From IMG/VR virus record IMGVR_UViG_2713896729_000007, positions 1-6,641 of that record: DNA of 6,641 bases. One strand, 5' to 3'. Within the stretch, counting starts at the first letter, position 1, and every line of letters begins with the position of its first letter. This DNA is from a virus. Taxonomy: Duplodnaviria; Heunggongvirae; Uroviricota; Caudoviricetes. Of the stretch, positions 1 to 6,641 are shown piece by piece. The position numbers and the translations under genes are program-made. Below the pieces are notes generated by a model. It made no database searches. It saw nothing but the letters and a program-made list of their open reading frames with translations, and was not told where the DNA came from.

Positions 1-216
1 ATGAAATCCATGGACAAGTTAACAACGGGCATTGCCTACGGCACCTCCGCAGGCAGTGCTGGCTACTGGTTTTTACAGTGGCTTGATCAGGTCAGTCCAT
101 CACAGTGGGCTGCTATTGGTGTGCTGGGAAGTCTGGTTCTGGGCTTTCTGACTTACCTGACGAATCTGTACTTCAAAATAAGAGAAGACAAGCGTAAAGC
201 TGCGCGGGGAGAGTAA
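1..216 (+). CDS. Class II pinholin, phage 21 S-like (Qin essQ-like), 71 aa
   Basis: ORF begins at window position 1 with MKSMDK, the dual-start Met1/Met4 motif of S21 antiholin/holin; 71 aa with hydrophobic segments and a charged C-terminal tail ([13 protein letters not shown]); located immediately upstream of an endolysin and Rz/Rz1. Upstream sequence is not visible. Confidence 0.88.
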
Positions 217-220
217 TTCA

Positions 221-565
221 ATGACTCAAAACTATGAACTGATTGTGAAAGGGATCCGCAATTTTGAGAATAAAGTTACGGTAACTTTAGCGTTACGGGA
301 CAAAAAACGCTTTGACGGTGAAATTTTTGACCTGGACATCTCGCTGGACCGTGTTGAAGGTGCCGCGCTGGAGTTTTATGAGGCAGCAGCCAGAAGGAGC
401 ATCAGACAGGTCTTCCTGGATGTTGCTGCCGGGTTATGTGAAGGGGATGAGCTGTCGCCGGAAAAGCGCCCCATAATTTTAGAGGCGCAGAATGTGTGGA
501 TAACCTACAAAGGAAAGCTACCGGGAAGAATTACTGGTTCTCTGAAGACTCCGCCGAAATGGTAA
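221..565 (+). CDS. Holin-coupled 114-aa soluble hypothetical protein in the lysis cassette (possibly YdfR/DUF1327-like, from memory only)
   Basis: ATG at 221 lies 4 nt after the holin stop, with GGGGAGAG upstream as a Shine-Dalgarno; E. coli-like codon usage; no hydrophobic segment. Family assignment rests on recalled similarity of the N-terminus (MTQ.YEL.VKG.RNFENKVTVT) to the Qin ydfR product and is unverified. Confidence 0.6.
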   Translation: MTQNYELIVKGIRNFENKVTVTLALRDKKRFDGEIFDLDISLDRVEGAALEFYEAAARRSIRQVFLDVAAGLCEGDELSPEKRPIILEAQNVWITYKGKLPGRITGSLKTPPKW

Positions 566-803
566 TTTCACCAGCATATTTTTCTTCCAGTAATACCGCC
601 AGCCACTTGAAAGAATTTTGTTGTTGCTGGGACCATTTGGGGTTGAGTGATTCAAGCTGGAGCGATGCCAGTGTTGGTTGCATTTGTTCCTTGGGAATTG
701 AGAATGCCAGATATGAAAATGCGACAGTAAGGGCATTTACATCATCCCGAAGCTTGGAAATGCAGTCGAGCAACTCCTGTAGAGAAATGGTGCTATTGTC
801 CAT
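531..803 (-). CDS. Candidate 90-aa hypothetical protein convergent with the lysis operon
   Basis: ATG at 803..801 is preceded on the - strand by GAGAGG with a 7-nt spacer; a possible TTGAAT-N19-TACAAT promoter lies just upstream; the translation is helix-like and not low complexity. Its 3' end overlaps the 221-565 ORF by 35 nt. It could still be a chance ORF. Confidence 0.25.
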   Translation of the reverse strand: MDNSTISLQELLDCISKLRDDVNALTVAFSYLAFSIPKEQMQPTLASLQLESLNPKWSQQQQNSFKWLAVLLEEKYAGEITISAESSENQ

Positions 804-908
804 AAACAATCCTCTCTATTGTATTTAACTATTCCTTGCCTGATTCAACAGGCCGGGACAGATAAACATATCCAGGGTTCAGAAACCGATAAATCCTGAT
901 AAATATCC

Positions 909-1442
909 ATGAACGTAAAAATCAGATACGGCCTGTCGGCTGCCGTTCTGGCACTGATTGCCGTCGGTGCGCCTGCGCCTGATATTCTCGACCAGTTTCT
1001 GAATGAAAAAGAAGGTAACCACACAACGGCATACCGCGATGGTTCCGGCATCTGGACCATCTGTCGGGGTGCCACGGTGGTGGATGGAAAACCCGTTTTT
1101 CCCGGTATGAAACTGTCGAAGGAAAAATGCGACCAGGTTAACGCCATTGAACGGGATAAGGCGCTGGCATGGGTGGAGCGCAATATTAAAGTGCCACTGA
1201 CCGAACCACAGAAAGCGGGTATAGCGTCATTTTGTCCCTATAACATTGGCCCCGGTAAGTGTTTCCCGTCGACGTTTTATAAGCGGCTGAATGCCGGTGA
1301 TCGTAAGGGTGCATGCGAGGCGATTCGCTGGTGGATAAAAGATGGTGGGCGCGATTGCCGCATACGTTCAAATAACTGCTATGGACAGGTTATTCGTCGT
1401 GACCAGGAAAGCGCATTAGCCTGTTGGGGGATAGATCAGTGA
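909..1442 (+). CDS. SAR endolysin, T4-lysozyme-like muramidase (GH24), 177 aa (Qin rrrQ-like)
   Basis: Catalytic E-x8-D-x5-T motif ([16 protein letters not shown]); Gly/Ala-rich weakly hydrophobic N-terminus ([17 protein letters not shown]) typical of signal-arrest-release endolysins partnered with pinholins; stop codon overlaps the Rz start. Confidence 0.88.
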
Positions 1443-1809
1443 GCAGAGTCGCCGCGATTATTTATGCTCTGGTTATCTGCATCATCGTCTGCCTGTCGTG
1501 GGCGGTCAATCATTACCGTGATAACGCCATCGCCTACAAAGAACAGCGTGATAAAAAAGTCAGTGAGCTGAAGCAGGCGACCGCCACCATTACTGACATG
1601 CAGCAACGCCAGCGTGCTGCTGATGTACTCGATGCTAAATACACGAAGGAGTTGGCTGATGCGAAAGCTGAAAATGATGCTCTTCGGCGCAAGCTTGATA
1701 ATGGTGGTCGGGTGCTCGTCAAAGGAAAATGCTCTGTGCCATCCTCAGCCGAAACCTCCAGCGCCTCCGGCATGGGCAATGATGCCACCGTCGAACTCTC
1801 TCCAGTTGC
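1439..1809 (+). CDS. Rz-type i-spanin, 3' end truncated by the N gap
   Basis: GTG at 1439 overlaps the endolysin TGA (GTGA), preceded by GGGGGA with a 7-nt spacer; N-terminal transmembrane segment ([17 protein letters not shown]) followed by a charged, coiled-coil-like periplasmic region; runs into N run at 1810. Start could alternatively be TTG 1424. Confidence 0.78.
1659..1809 (+). CDS. Rz1-type o-spanin lipoprotein embedded in the +1 frame of Rz, 3' end truncated by the gap
   Basis: ATG at 1659 preceded by AAGGAG; product [19 protein letters not shown] with lipobox VVGC followed by a proline-rich region ([11 protein letters not shown]); lies entirely within Rz in another frame. Confidence 0.75.
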
Positions 1810-1819
1810 NNNNNNNNNN
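1810..1819. other. Assembly gap (10 N), probable scaffold join between two contigs
   Basis: Run of exactly 10 N; truncated genes on both sides; homologous Rz sequences converge on it from opposite strands. Confidence 0.9.
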
Positions 1820-1908
1820 AGAGGATGGCACAGGGCATTTTCCTTTGACGAGCACCCTGCCACCATTATCAAGCTTCCGCAGAAGAGCATCATTTTCAGC
1901 TTTCGCAT
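1820..1908 (-). CDS. rzoD: Rz1-type o-spanin lipoprotein, second copy, 3' end truncated by the gap
   Basis: ATG at 1908..1906 preceded on the - strand by AAGGAG; product [29 protein letters not shown] with lipobox VAGC; embedded in the second Rz. Symbol inferred from the DLP12-like gene order. Confidence 0.65.
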
Positions 1909-2128
1909 CAGCTAACTCCTTCGTGTATTTTGCATCGAGCGCAGCAACATCACGCTGACGCATCTGCATGTCAGTAATTGCCGCGTTCGCCAGCTTCAGT
2001 TCTCTGACATTTTTGTCGCGCTGGGCTTTGTAGGTAATGGCGTTATCACGGTAATGATTAACAGCCCATGACAGGCAGACGATGATGCAGATAACCAGAG
2101 CGGAGATAATCGCGGTTACTCTGTTCAT
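1820..2128 (-). CDS. rzpD: Rz-type i-spanin, second copy, 3' end truncated by the gap
   Basis: ATG at 2128..2126 overlaps the endolysin stop (ATGA); N-terminal transmembrane segment ([16 protein letters not shown]); roughly 88 percent nucleotide identity, by eye, to the reverse complement of 1439-1809. Confidence 0.78.
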
Positions 2129-2622
2129 TGCTGACCCCACAAACAGATTTCACGCTCAATCTCACGACGAGTCATGAGACCTTTCCATTGCTTACCGCCA
2201 GCATATGTCCAGCGACGTAGCTGATCACATGCGTCTTTGATATCGCCCTTGTTTATTTTGCGAAGAAGCGTCGATGTTCTGAAATTGCCAGCACCCACGT
2301 TGTAAACGAATGAGTAAAGAGCGCCGCGCATTGTTTCCGGTATATCGACTTTGATGTACGGGTTAATTTGTCTGGCGACCGTGGCAAGGTCTTTATTCAG
2401 GAGGGCTTTGCATTCTGCTTTGGTATACGTTTTACCGAGCATGATGTCTTTTCCTGTATGCCCGTGACATACAGTCCATACACCAACAATATCTTTGTAT
2501 GGTATGTAGCTGACACCTTCCAGACCATCGTTACCACTTGGGCCAGTAATTAACACTGATGCTATAGCAATTGCTCCGCCACCAATAGCAGCAGCAACGG
2601 CTTTTCGTAATGATGGAGGCAT
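2125..2622 (-). CDS. rrrD: SAR endolysin, phage 21 R-like, T4-lysozyme-like muramidase, 165 aa (DLP12 rrrD-like)
   Basis: Begins [27 protein letters not shown] (SAR domain); E-x8-D-x5-T motif ([16 protein letters not shown]); ATG overlaps the holin TAA by 1 nt; 165 aa. Confidence 0.88.
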
Positions 2623-2837
2623 TATTCACCTCTCGCAGCCTTGCGCTTATCTTCTTTAATCTTGAAATAAAGGTTTGTCAGGTACGTCAGCAGGCCAAAT
2701 ACCAGGCTACCCAGCACACCTATTGCTGCCCACTGTGAGGGCGTGACTTTATCGAGCAGCTGTAAAAACCAGTAACCGGCACTACCTGCTGAGGTGCCAT
2801 AGGCGACACCCGTTGTTAACTTATCCATGGATTTCAT
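2622..2837 (-). CDS. essD: Class II pinholin, phage 21 S-like, 71 aa (DLP12 essD-like)
   Basis: [16 protein letters not shown] dual-start motif; ATG at 2837..2835 preceded by GGTGGGG with about 6 nt spacing. The 86-aa version in the ORF track is an N-terminal extension without a better ribosome-binding site. Confidence 0.85.
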
Positions 2838-3424
2838 AACCCCACCTCGCAGACAAAGCGGGTGTAAATTGAGGGAATACAACGTATCGCAAAAAAGCAG
2901 AAACGTAACAGACTCGGAGTCAGTGAATAACTCAGGTATTGGGTTATCAGCTAATATCGAGACTCAAAAAATGGAAAAATCCGCTCGACGGCGGGTTTAA
3001 GCTGTGTGACGAAGTAACCACTCTTAACAGCATAACCAATTTTTTACGTACGTAAACCACTAAATGATATTTGCGAGAATGCTACCGAGTATTGAAAACA
3101 CCACTACAAATACATAAGCAAATCTCAACAAATAACCAACAAATAATTTCCAGCGTTATTTTTAGCTGGTTTAAATTGAATCTTCAAATTATAGAGCACT
3201 TATAAATAACAGCCATTAATATAAATTGGCTAATAGATTTATTTTTATTCAGCCAAGAGCCATGAATAGGATTCGATAGAAAAAGTTCAGATAAAAATAG
3301 AGATCTACTTCACAAATCAAATGAGAAACCAAAACTTACATCTTGAAATAATCACATTGATTAGATGAATATTTATCGCGCAGTGACATCATTTTTTAAT
3401 AATAGTTCAAAAAAAGGGCTCACG
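2838..3424. promoter_or_regulatory. AT-rich divergent control region between the holin (-) and the porin (+)
   Basis: About 590 bp, strongly AT-rich with many A/T tracts (3050-3400), no convincing ORF, directly upstream of the porin start at 3425; exact promoter elements not resolved. Confidence 0.4.
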
Positions 3425-4507
3425 ATGAAAAAATTAACAGTGGCAATTTCTGCTGTAGCTGCATCAGTACTGATGGCGATGTCTGCTCAGGCAGCTGAAA
3501 TTTATAATAAAGACAGTAACAAGCTGGATCTGTACGGGAAAGTTAATGCTAAGCACTACTTCTCCTCTAATGATGCAGATGATGGTGATACTACTTATGC
3601 CCGTCTTGGCTTCAAAGGTGAAACCCAAATCAACGATCAACTGACTGGTTTCGGTCAGTGGGAATATGAATTCAAAGGCAACCGCGCTGAATCTCAAGGT
3701 TCCTCCAAAGATAAAACCCGTCTTGCCTTCGCTGGCCTGAAATTCGGTGACTACGGCTCCATCGATTATGGCCGTAACTACGGTGTAGCATACGATATTG
3801 GTGCATGGACCGACGTTCTGCCAGAATTCGGTGGCGATACCTGGACCCAAACAGATGTATTCATGACTGGTCGCACCACAGGTGTTGCAACTTATCGTAA
3901 CAATGACTTCTTTGGTCTGGTTGATGGTCTGAACTTTGCTGCTCAGTATCAGGGTAAAAATGACCGCACTGACGTAACTGAAGCTAATGGTGATGGTTTC
4001 GGTTTCTCCACTACTTATGAGTATGAAGGATTCGGTGTAGGTGCAACCTATGCTAAATCTGACCGCACTAATAATCAGGTTATCTACGGTAACAACAGCC
4101 TGAATGCATCTGGTCAAAATGCTGAAGTATGGGCAGCTGGTCTGAAATATGATGCGAACAACATCTATCTGGCTACCACCTATTCTGAAACCCAGAACAT
4201 GACTGTTTTTGGTAATAACCATATTGCCAACAAAGCACAAAACTTCGAAGTAGTTGCACAATATCAGTTCGACTTCGGTCTGCGTCCGTCCGTTGCTTAC
4301 CTGCAATCTAAAGGAAAAGACTTGGGTGCGTGGGGTGATCAGGACTTGGTTGAATATATTGATGTAGGTGCAACCTATTACTTCAACAAAAATATGTCCA
4401 CTTTTGTTGATTACAAAATCAACCTGATTGATAAGAGCGATTTCACGAAAGCATCTGGCGTTGCTACCGATGATATCGTTGCTGTAGGTATGGTTTACCA
4501 GTTCTAA
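3425..4507 (+). CDS. nmpC: General-diffusion outer-membrane porin of the OmpC/OmpF/NmpC family, intact, 360 aa
   Basis: Signal peptide [23 protein letters not shown] followed by [16 protein letters not shown]; conserved porin motifs ([17 protein letters not shown]-terminal VYQF with terminal Phe); position between a Q-like gene and the S-like holin on the opposite strand matches DLP12. The track ORF start at 3365 was rejected in favour of ATG 3425 directly before the signal peptide. Confidence 0.9.
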
Positions 4508-4522
4508 TTTGATTACTAAAAG

Positions 4523-4556
4523 ATATGTTGCGGGAGGCTTTGCCTCCCCAACATAT
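4523..4556. terminator. Long imperfect hairpin 16 nt after the porin stop; candidate bidirectional or - strand (tR'-like) terminator
   Basis: atatgttg-c-gggaggc ttt gcctccc caacatat forms a 15-bp stem with one bulge; on the - strand it is followed by CTTTTAG; on the + strand it is not followed by a T run. Confidence 0.4.
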
Positions 4557-4644
4557 AAGTGGCTCCCTCAAGCCACTTCCTTTAGGAGCACAACCTTGCT
4601 TCTAACTATATAAACCTTCTGTTATATATTACCCTTTATTTTTG

Positions 4645-4669
4645 GGGGCGTCTCAACGCCCCATTTTTA
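4645..4669 (+). terminator. Rho-independent terminator, + strand
   Basis: ggggcgt ctca acgcccc (7-bp GC-rich stem, 4-nt loop) followed by ATTTTTAA; on the - strand it is followed by an A run, so it is unidirectional. Confidence 0.5.
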
Positions 4670-4695
4670 ATAACTTTTAGTAAATAATTGGCGTA

Positions 4696-5058
4696 TTAAT
4701 TAGAGTTATTAACAACGATATCCATCTCTAACCGGATATCTAATGCCATTAACATCCCTTCAATTATGCCCTCAGCCTTCTGTAACCTTTTCCCGATATA
4801 ACCATCAGAGCAGCAATGCTTACCTGCCAGTGACATGAATGTCATACCGACTACATAATAATCTACTAATAAATCGTGCAAATCGCTGTTGTTCTTTTTC
4901 AGACGGGCCATGCACCCGCAAATGATCATCGCGTCATCGTCACAACATTGCGGGCGAGATTTTACTTTTGAAGTAATTAATCCCTTAAAACCGGCGGCAA
5001 TGGACGACCAGGTCACATCTTCATGATTATTAGCCGCCCACGCTCCCCAACGCTCAAG
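4696..5058 (-). CDS. quuD: Q-like late-gene antiterminator, C-terminal about 120 aa; N-terminus lost in the gap
   Basis: Reading frame with paired cysteines (QCCDDD, CGC, KHCC) suggesting zinc binding; stop at 4698..4696; its position relative to the porin and holin matches DLP12 order quuD-nmpC-essD. Identity is recalled from the DLP12 QuuD (phage 82 Q family) sequence, unverified. Confidence 0.55.
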
Positions 5059-5068
5059 NNNNNNNNNN
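5059..5068. other. Assembly gap (10 N), probable scaffold join
   Basis: Run of exactly 10 N separating a 5' lom fragment from unrelated Q-like coding sequence. Confidence 0.9.
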
Positions 5069-5346
5069 CGTAAGGAATCTTCATGCCAGCGGGTATCGCT
5101 GTAACGGGTCAGCTGGCGATTCTTGTCTCCTGCATAGCTGAATGACGTCACCAGCCCTAGTGTGTCCGTAAACTCATAACGGTATTTCACGTTAATCCCG
5201 TTCAGATCATCGCTGCCGGGAACGTTCGTCGAGGCATGAAGATAGCCCGCGCTCAGCGTGGACTGATGTTCAGACGCCCATGCAGGCGCACCGGATACGG
5301 CCAGACAGATGGCTGCGGACAAAATGGCGGCATAAAGTTTACGCAT
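5069..5346 (-). CDS. lom: Lom outer-membrane protein (Ail/OmpX/PagC family), N-terminal 92 aa only; truncated at the gap
   Basis: MRKLYAAILSAAICLAVSGAPAWA signal peptide followed by SEHQSTLSAGYLHASTN...YAGDKNRQLTRYSDTRWHEDS, near-identical to lambda Lom as recalled; ATG at 5346 preceded by GAGAGG with a 6-nt spacer; lies immediately downstream of J as in lambda. Confidence 0.85.
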
Positions 5347-5366
5347 AATTACCTCTCGCTTTTCTG

Positions 5367-5394
5367 CAATAAAAAAGGCGCCAGAAATGGCGCC
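5367..5394 (-). terminator. Rho-independent terminator after J, - strand
   Basis: ggcgcc agaaat ggcgcc stem-loop followed on the - strand by TTTTTTATT; about 20 nt downstream of the J stop. Confidence 0.55.
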
Positions 5395-5414
5395 CGCATA
5401 TGGGTTATGAAAAT

Positions 5415-6641
5415 TCAGCTAATCGTGATACCTGCTGTGGATTTCTTCATCACCACAACCAGCAAATCGCTGATACTGGCTGTGGGATACCAGTCATTTA
5501 CCAGCCACGCTGATACCGAAAACTCCAGCGTCATGTGACCGCGACCAGCAGGCATATCAATAACACCTGTATAAACCAGCGTATTATCCAGCGCGGTACG
5601 GTTATAAATTTCAGCACCGTTTTTCTTCACTATCAGGCGGCATGACGAATAAATATCGTTATTCTCCCGCTCATGTTTAGCGCCACGAAACGCCACCGCG
5701 GGAATAACAATCTGCCGGTCAAACGGCTGATCGTCATAAACCCTGACGGTAATGGTCCCTGATGGCCACCGCTCCGGTGCACGGGAGTCCCGGGGGAAAG
5801 CTTTGCCCACTGTTTTAACGAGATCGCCTTCAATCTGGTTCGCGGACAGTTTTCCCAGAACCCGACAGTTCTCGTTAATCGTGACATTGTTGAGCGTCCC
5901 GGCGTTCGCATTCACACTGCCACTGATATCCGCATTTTTAGCGGTCAGCTTTCCGTCCGGTGTCAGGGAAAATACCGGTGGATTTCCACCACTGGTAATG
6001 GTGGGGGCCGTCAGGCGTTTGAGGAACACGTCGTTCATGAATATCTGGTTGCCCTGCGCCACAAACATCGGCGTTTCATTCCCGTTTGCCGGGTCAATAA
6101 ACGCGATACGATTGGCGGCAACCAGAAACTGGCTCAGTTTGCCTTCCTCTGTATCCTCCATGCTGAGGCCAAGCCCCGCGACATAATGTTTGCCGTCTTT
6201 GGTCTGCTCAATTTTGACGCCCCACATGGCATTCCATTTATCGTTGGCGTCTTTCCACTCTTTCGAAAACTCCTCCAGTCTGCTGGCGTTATCCTCCGTC
6301 AGGTCGACTTTTTCCAGCAGCTCCTTGCCGAGATGGGATTCGGTTATCAGGCCTTTGAAAAAATCCAGGTAACCTTCCGCATCATCGCTCGCCCGACCGA
6401 CGGCCTCCACAAATGCCGATTTGCCAACGGTGTTCACACTGCGGATATAAAAGTAATAATCATGGCCCGGTTTGATATTGATACTGGCGGCTATCCAGTA
6501 CAGCGCCGTACCAAGATAGCGGGCTGTGGTTTCAACCTGCCTGATATCGGTAATCCGCGTTTCCGAGAACCAGAACTCAAACTGTACCGTCGGATCATAA
6601 ACCGCAAGATGCGGCGTGGCGGTTATCTGAAAATAGCCCGG
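5415..6641 (-). CDS. J: Tail tip / host-specificity protein J, C-terminal about 408 aa; 5' end beyond the window
   Basis: Frame is open from the window edge at 6641 ([33 protein letters not shown]...) to the stop at 5417..5415 and ends ...[17 protein letters not shown], matching the lambda J C-terminal region as recalled. The internal start at 6437 in the ORF track is an artefact. Confidence 0.9.

Follow-up and report, generated by a model that had tools for sequence, protein, structure and literature searches.

The morons of lambdoid phages, a concept of Juhala, Hendrix and colleagues, are exemplified by bor and lom of phage lambda and by examples from HK97 and HK022. Classic morons have a recognizable promoter and terminator. 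Here we describe a gene of 90 amino acids (aa) in a 6,641-nucleotide (nt) stretch of Caudoviricetes DNA (IMG/VR record IMGVR_UViG_2713896729_000007, positions 1 to 6,641; the whole stretch is called the window). It lies between ydfR and the endolysin gene of a lysis cassette (cassette A), on the strand opposite to the late genes, where a spacer had appeared to be empty. Comparison with related phages, prophages and chromosomes indicates that the spacer is probably filled by an optional, moron-like accessory gene running against the late operon, which is not part of the lysis machinery.

The minus-strand gene between ydfR and the endolysin gene

The ydfR stop codon (565) and the endolysin start (909) are 343 base pairs (bp) apart. 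The original prediction had singled out this gap as unusual for a lysis cassette, and both its coordinates and its premise of tight packing hold. The window is a scaffold of three unrelated pieces joined by runs of ten Ns at 1810-1819 and 5059-5068; in its second cassette (B) the holin (2622-2837) and endolysin (2125-2622) genes have one base in common, and in the Qin prophage of Escherichia coli K-12 ydfR overlaps rrrQ by 4 bp with zero spacer. No plus-strand open reading frame (ORF) with family support was found within the 343-bp spacer. The 90-aa ORF proposed on the minus strand was confirmed together with its GAGAGG ribosome-binding site, except that it is not contained in the spacer, as its last 35 nt overlap ydfR.

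Sequence comparison identifies this ORF as a genuine protein-coding gene under purifying selection. Searches of protein and hidden Markov model (HMM) databases, which had been recommended for the 90-aa and the 114-aa translations, placed both in families: the 114-aa product of ydfR belongs to DUF1327, and residues 1-90 of the 90-aa protein align with positions 1-90 of the 90-position HMM of phrog_2411, a PHROG family with no function assigned (E=2.2e-59). No Pfam match was obtained for the 90-aa protein at E<=0.1, DUF1327/PF07041 included. The ORF is also called by the annotators of the phages Chlobot, vB_EcoS-783R2 and phiSTEC1575-Stx2k and by PGAP, which lists it as coding sequence WP_000370550.1, 'hypothetical protein', in a locus 98.5% identical to the window (L001). 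An alternative TTG start at 809 would give 92 aa; PGAP and all homologues take the ATG. The identical 90-aa protein is found on at least 1000 contigs, and 1139 of 5426 complete E. coli genomes carry a copy of the corresponding 285-bp segment (median one, maximum three per genome).

Ratios of nonsynonymous to synonymous substitution (dN/dS) were calculated by the Nei-Gojobori method in all six frames for nine distinct alleles of 84-99% nucleotide identity. The annotated minus frame gave a median dN/dS of 0.25 and contained zero stops in all nine alleles; its variable sites fell on codon positions 1/2/3 in the numbers 27/21/48. Two samples of viral contigs contained 81 and 79 E. coli-type loci, and 79 loci in each sample had an intact gene of exactly 90 aa. 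The comparison of the ORF across related prophages that the original prediction had called for thus returned an open frame and not the frameshifts or stops named there as counter-evidence. Among deviating alleles from some E. coli genomes, three of 94 aa (P0046, P0049, P0051) shift after residue ~58, within the glutamine-rich WSQQQQ, into a second minus-strand frame, which in the window is the 72-aa ORF 518..736. Three others (P0048, P0053, P0056) are truncated to 50-56 aa.

With respect to expression, a GAGG or AAGG core at the same spacing from the start codon is kept in eight diverged loci. The -10 element of a weak promoter candidate located in the endolysin leader is the same in all eight diverged loci that carry the gene, whereas vB_EcoS-689R5, a phage without the gene, has ACAGGT at this place. 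A different candidate, TTGAAT-19-TACAAT, was rejected on account of its 19-nt spacer and a transcription start that would fall inside the Shine-Dalgarno sequence. As no terminator was predicted, any minus-strand transcript would run on antisense into ydfR. At window 793-836, across the start codon and the ribosome-binding region, there is an imperfect direct repeat of 21 nt (CTATTGTCCATAAACAATCCT / CTATTGTATTTAACTATTCCT, 71%), which is probably due to chance.

AlphaFold2, supplied with a 48-sequence alignment, predicted helices at residues 8-33, 38-52 and 59-76 with a mean predicted local distance difference test score (pLDDT) of 80.6, in agreement with an earlier model, and a disordered tail at residues 80-90 with pLDDT below 50. 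The isoelectric point is 4.3, the net charge about -6.5 and the grand average of hydropathy -0.28. On this model the protein is predicted to be a soluble, acidic three-helix bundle without transmembrane character. The tail encoded by the overlap with ydfR coincides with the disordered part and varies across the family.

Distribution and proposed function

In vB_EcoS-689R5 and several other phages, the region from holin through ydfR to endolysin aligns with the window as two separate blocks and is ~274 bp shorter. What remains of the ORF in the short allele is its final 30 nt, which lie inside the ydfR tail. The comparison with Qin that had been suggested earlier was carried out as well: K-12 Qin has neither the gene nor the spacer, and the Qin prophage of another strain (L017) has the gene, in the order cspB-ynfU-essQ-ydfR-gene-rrrQ-rzpQ-cspI. 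The insert has a GC content of 42.2%, compared with 50.0% in the holin gene, 47.5% in ydfR, 52.1% in the endolysin gene and 52.8% in Rz, which is a modest difference. Downstream of it, the proximal 30 nt of the endolysin leader are identical in gene-bearing and gene-less alleles, whereas the distal half differs. In phiSTEC1575-Stx2k the leader is kept beside the 90-aa gene although the endolysin is replaced. The 60-nt leader is conserved more strongly than the adjacent coding sequence.

The family was extended in two steps, first by searching 1.84 billion representatives with a profile and then by a profile word search, which together reached homologues of 26-40% identity. These keep the length and a conserved core (...ELL..I...L..L..AFSYLAF...ES.N...Q..F..LA), and their tail is variable. 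Homologues from Citrobacter, from locus L028 and from Serratia match phrog_2411, that of S. marcescens (P0083) at E=4.5e-10. In a collection of one genome per species, 40 of 42 hits occupy the chromosomal slot pyrC-dinI-gene-bssS, in ~25 Serratia species and in Hafnia, Chimaeribacter, Biostraticola, Acerihabitans and Sodalis. The chromosomal orthologues are single-copy and in most cases 89-93 aa long; a few chromosomal homologues were found at other non-phage sites. The dinI-bssS gene comes after the terminator-like hairpin of dinI and has a conserved sigma-70-type sequence (TTGGCA-17-TGTAAT in Sodalis and Acerihabitans). With its own promoter past the dinI hairpin, the chromosomal orthologue is therefore an independent monocistronic gene. 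A LexA box is present upstream of Serratia dinI only and upstream of the 90-aa family gene in no context; since the box belongs to dinI, an SOS link by neighbourhood is without support. That rne lies close to the Serratia locus was put down to incidental synteny. K-12 has the same dinI-bssS synteny, and no gene remnant was found in its 286-bp gap. Every family member retrieved from E. coli is of the prophage type. Literature searches on dinI, bssS and Serratia, and on a moron in the opposite strand at holin and endolysin genes, returned nothing relevant.

The gene is not assigned to the lysis machinery because its product lacks predicted transmembrane character and is modelled as soluble, because it neighbours three unrelated holin/endolysin sets, and because it also occupies tail-gene and chromosomal sites; nor was a lysis PHROG or Pfam match obtained. 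Features of toxin-antitoxin or defence systems were likewise missing: the pair formed with ydfR is convergent rather than operonic, neither protein is hydrophobic, and PADLOC at E<=1 gave no match for the 90-aa protein, three homologues or YdfR. Of the three readings offered originally, namely moron insertion, antisense regulator of lysis timing and decayed sequence, the first is the best supported, by presence and absence between collinear genes, lower GC content, an own ribosome-binding site, antisense orientation and chromosomal homologues.

We propose that a weak promoter of its own in the endolysin leader would drive the 90-aa gene independently of, and against, Q-dependent late transcription, and that most of the product would be made in the lysogen. 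The small protein, predicted to be soluble, acidic and helical, may work by binding another protein rather than as an enzyme or membrane protein; its target could be a host factor, which might likewise be the case for the chromosomal orthologue and its hosts, or else a YdfR-type partner. The antisense transcript into the 3' end of ydfR may add RNA-level cross-talk, which would be secondary to the protein function.

Several observations weigh against this explanation. Judged from the alignments, deletion is a more likely origin of the short allele than an empty insertion site: 30 nt from the end of the ORF are still present, and the arrangement of gene plus partner tail is common to distant lineages. 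A clear promoter and terminator are also lacking. The possible promoter of the original prediction was not recovered by a standard consensus scan of positions 1-1500 on both strands, which found neither a sigma-70 promoter nor an intrinsic terminator; a relaxed scan yields weak candidates only, and TTTATC-17-TATGTT fits the consensus at just 7/12 positions. The sampled E. coli-type loci are close kin and not independent, with only 16 and 9 distinct proteins in the two samples. Frameshifted or truncated alleles exist as a minority, and the gene is therefore dispensable in some hosts. Foldseek returned no match against PDB and BFVD at E<=0.001, a sequence-profile search of PDB gave noise only (E>1), and NCBIfam and PADLOC contained no meaningful match for the 90-aa protein. 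No publication was found on the accessions of the 90-aa protein, on ybl58 or on phrog_2411. Finally, what points to protein binding is solely size, charge and predicted fold class.

Table 1. Positions of the gene, its neighbours and related features. Numbers refer to the window unless a locus is named.
Feature	Position	Strand	Remarks
Class II (P21-type) holin gene, cassette A	1..216	+	PF04971, E=3.5e-35
ydfR-like gene, DUF1327, 114 aa, late strand	221..565	+	PF07041, E=4e-42
Protein-coding gene, 90 aa, phrog_2411	531..803	-	ATG 803-801, TAA 533-531; full-length PHROG match
Tail-to-tail overlap of the convergent genes, 35 nt	531..565		encodes the last 11 residues of the 90-aa protein
Segment missing from the short allele (vB_EcoS-689R5)	560..847 (approximate)		alignment; ~18 unrelated bases instead
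Shine-Dalgarno sequence GAGAGG	811..816	-	read directly; 7 nt upstream of ATG
Endolysin leader	848..908	+	alignments; in gene-bearing and gene-less alleles; without obvious Shine-Dalgarno sequence
Candidate weak sigma-70 promoter	865..893	-	TTTATC (893-888), 17-nt spacer, TATGTT (870-865); relaxed scan
Endolysin (phage lysozyme) gene, cassette A	909..1442	+	PF00959, E=1.3e-24
Rz gene, cassette A	1439-1809	+	
Partner in E. coli, ydfR	530-544 (ITGSL)		ends in ...GRITGSLKTPPKW; overlap 35 nt
Partner in Citrobacter freundii, 63 aa			overlap 14 nt
Partner in C. meridianamericanus, 238 aa			overlap 14 nt
Partner in L028, 62-aa ORF			missed by the gene caller; overlap 20 nt
Partner in L158, 71-aa ORF			overlap 47 nt
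YdfR mosaic junction, examples	527-565; L005:1161-1967, L019:660-1295, L020:721-1272		
Chromosomal orthologues in the dinI-bssS slot	L021:4001-4282, L025-L027, L034-L035, L118-L157		

Elsewhere in the window, the Rz genes at 1439-1809 (plus strand) and 1820-2128 (minus strand) abut head-to-head across the first N run. A fragment of the Q antiterminator gene (4696-5058, minus strand) is joined to a Lom fragment (5069-5346, minus strand) across the second; ORFs crossing the N runs, such as the 216-aa ORF 4696..5346, are assembly artefacts. Cassette B (2125-5058) is DLP12-like, with Q fragment, holin, endolysin and Rz on the minus strand. In avian pathogenic E. coli (APEC) IMT5155, an IS66-family element (tnpA/B/C; L001:3263-5878) is located between a tRNA cluster and the holin gene of the cassette, and the tRNA cluster sits downstream of a frameshifted Q. 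In the Logan assemblies L009-L011 (SRR110150xx), the 90-aa gene is intact, the part of ydfR encoding the DUF1327 N-terminal region is deleted, and a ParE/ParD-like toxin-antitoxin pair follows the endolysin gene.

The convergent partner and alternative explanations

In all phage contexts the 90-aa gene is antisense to the late genes, and a gene on the late strand overlaps its 3' end. The surroundings of this convergent arrangement vary. In E. coli the gene lies between holin and endolysin, in Citrobacter upstream of two further holin-endolysin sets that are unrelated, in L028 near the terminase, and in L158 directly downstream of a lambda-I-like tail assembly gene, outside any lysis cassette. 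In phiSTEC1575-Stx2k the gene is retained as a pair with ydfR. The C. meridianamericanus prophage (L117:4087-5847) carries the module next to HicA/HicB toxin-antitoxin genes and a gene for a 300-aa pertussis-toxin-S1-like ADP-ribosyltransferase; a lambda-S-type holin and a CHAP-domain endolysin are encoded shortly downstream.

The last 12 residues of the partner read (R/K)(I/L)TG(S/D)(L/I)..P... in every phage lineage examined, a motif found in 0/1142 background ORFs. Partner tails differ at synonymous positions and keep a constant distance to the stop codon; the tail is therefore conserved as protein. Homology also links the small partners, both among themselves (two-sequence E about 1e-7) and with the C-terminal extension of long YdfR proteins. 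With 68% identity over the final 31 residues, the two Citrobacter partners may represent one lineage, which leaves four to five lineages in total.

These data bear on a first alternative, in which the product of the 90-aa gene acts together with the late-strand protein that ends in ...ITGSL..P... (YdfR in E. coli) as a two-gene module. One of the pair might, for instance, be an effector of the lytic phase and the other its antagonist or immunity factor in the lysogen, with the convergent 3' overlap providing reciprocal antisense control. Such a pair would refine the favoured explanation of an accessory gene rather than exclude it, and we consider it unlikely. The recurrence of the same-motif overlap in E. 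coli, two Citrobacter prophages, L028 and L158, at different positions and despite protein identities of 39-63%, speaks for it, as do the protein-level conservation of the partner tail and the homologies among the small partners and with the long YdfR extension. In L009 a tail remnant and the 90-aa gene remain after loss of the DUF1327 N-terminal part. YdfR, moreover, has been reported to bind the catalytic (N-terminal) domain of RNase E, and possibly RNA (PMC13232886). Yet the chromosomal orthologues in ~40 species have no such convergent partner, many ydfR genes occur without the 90-aa gene (K-12, 689R5, mEp460, 2H10), and the 238-aa Citrobacter partner has no DUF1327 match.

The position of the motif within YdfR offers a different account of the linkage. 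In longer YdfR proteins ITYKGKLPGRITGSLK.PP is internal and the sequence continues past it. The family is mosaic after this point, its members either ending there (114/116 aa) or carrying a coiled-coil extension (183, 211, 268 aa). YdfR of K-12 (103 aa) diverges before the motif and has neither the ITGSL tail nor the 90-aa neighbour. By this comparison, the DUF1327 core ends at a mosaic junction that takes alternative modules. Because the motif also marks this junction, the linkage may stem from common descent of a recombination boundary instead of functional coupling.

A more elaborate scheme would see the two genes as a portable convergent module, built around a small host-derived regulator (the dinI-bssS protein of Serratia-like bacteria), in which the 90-aa protein of the lysogen counteracts or gates a late YdfR-type protein, the reported binder of RNase E, and the overlap adds antisense control; effector and antagonist would then be divided between the phases of the phage life cycle. 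We regard it as doubtful, and as less probable still than the plain pair.

Control of lysis at the RNA level is improbable as the explanation of the locus. Here, minus-strand transcription would collide or pair with the late transcript and thereby damp leaky expression in the lysogen or tune lysis timing, and the ORF would be incidental. The antisense orientation within the interval between holin and endolysin genes is consistent with this, as are the missing terminator after the ORF, which would let a transcript reach ydfR and possibly the holin gene, and the overlap of the candidate promoter with the conserved endolysin leader. It is the protein, however, that is under selection (dN/dS of 0.25, a bias towards third codon positions, open frame in 158/160 loci), and distant orthologues (30-40% identity) keep the protein and share no DNA. 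The gene is also found away from lysis genes (L158) and in chromosomes, and in Citrobacter it is located upstream of the holin and not within the cassette. Lysis timing may be affected at the RNA level, but this can hardly be the function that is mainly under selection.

That the spacer is decayed or non-coding with a chance ORF, or that the plus-strand 110-aa ORF (496-828) is the true gene, can practically be discounted. The region has no Pfam domain, and the plus frame shows an equally low apparent dN/dS of 0.24-0.28, which arises because its third codon positions are common with those of the minus ORF. This plus frame gains one or two stops in 4/9 alleles and has no family match, and it was rejected as a gene. 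The minus ORF is uninterrupted in nine alleles, with a full-length PHROG match and distant homologues across Enterobacterales, and the proposal of decayed sequence made originally is refuted by 158 intact loci among 160 and a dN/dS of about 0.25. A small mobile element, either a miniature inverted-repeat transposable element or the remnant of an insertion sequence with an incidental ORF, would account for the presence/absence polymorphism and the sharp boundaries, but is just as remote given that a repeat search at the segment boundaries found neither terminal inverted repeats nor a target duplication, that no transposase and no Rfam match exist for the spacer (one sub-threshold chance match lies outside it), and that genomes carry at most three copies (median one), always in the same slot in the E. 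coli-type loci examined.

Comparison with known systems

The apparent anomaly is thus resolved: the gap holds an already catalogued, uncharacterised accessory gene present in about a fifth of complete E. coli genomes. We did not find previous reports of the fixed core-genome orthologues between dinI and bssS, spread over several enterobacterial families, of a gene that is prophage-only in E. coli, of the constantly convergent and overlapping arrangement of the phage gene with a YdfR-type tail, or of the end of the DUF1327 core as a mosaic junction. The convergent pairing, the dinI-bssS orthologues and the mosaic junction provide testable entry points to the functions of the 90-aa protein and of YdfR.

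YdfR, whose gene adjoins and overlaps the 90-aa gene, is alone in the module in having been studied by experiment; the 90-aa protein itself is not a DUF1327 protein. The chromosomal dinI-bssS orthologues belong to the same family, share length, core and variable tail, and are equally uncharacterised. They differ from the phage gene by their 26-40% identity, a fixed core-genome slot, a strong conserved promoter and the lack of a partner.

Two further ORFs are comparable in position. Gp06 (104 aa) of Stx2 phage 86 and an 86-aa ORF of PhiR5_1 occupy the same slot, from a YdfR-family gene to the endolysin gene, in the same orientation, whereas their YdfR partners extend far past the ITGSLK.PP motif. 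Homology between these ORFs and the 90-aa gene was considered and rejected, with no BLASTP alignment and an hhalign probability below 1%. The slot between ydfR and endolysin is a hotspot for opposite-strand ORFs. The window contains a second opposite-strand passenger, an NmpC-type porin gene (3425-4507, plus strand) antisense between Q and the cassette B holin. Like the 90-aa gene, the nmpC-type gene of DLP12-like prophages is an accessory gene antisense to the late operon near lysis genes. It belongs to the porin class and lies upstream of the holin, whereas the 90-aa gene lies between holin and endolysin and has no known class. Since nmpC lies between Q (4696-5058) and holin, this region accepts opposite-strand passengers in both cassettes.

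In comparison with the morons of lambdoid phages, the 90-aa gene has a weak candidate promoter only and no terminator, its 3' end overlaps the neighbouring gene, and the short allele resembles a deletion. It resembles them as an extra gene of distinct base composition, located in the late region between genes that are adjacent in related phages, dispensable for lytic growth, and in an orientation of the kind that often permits expression from the prophage.

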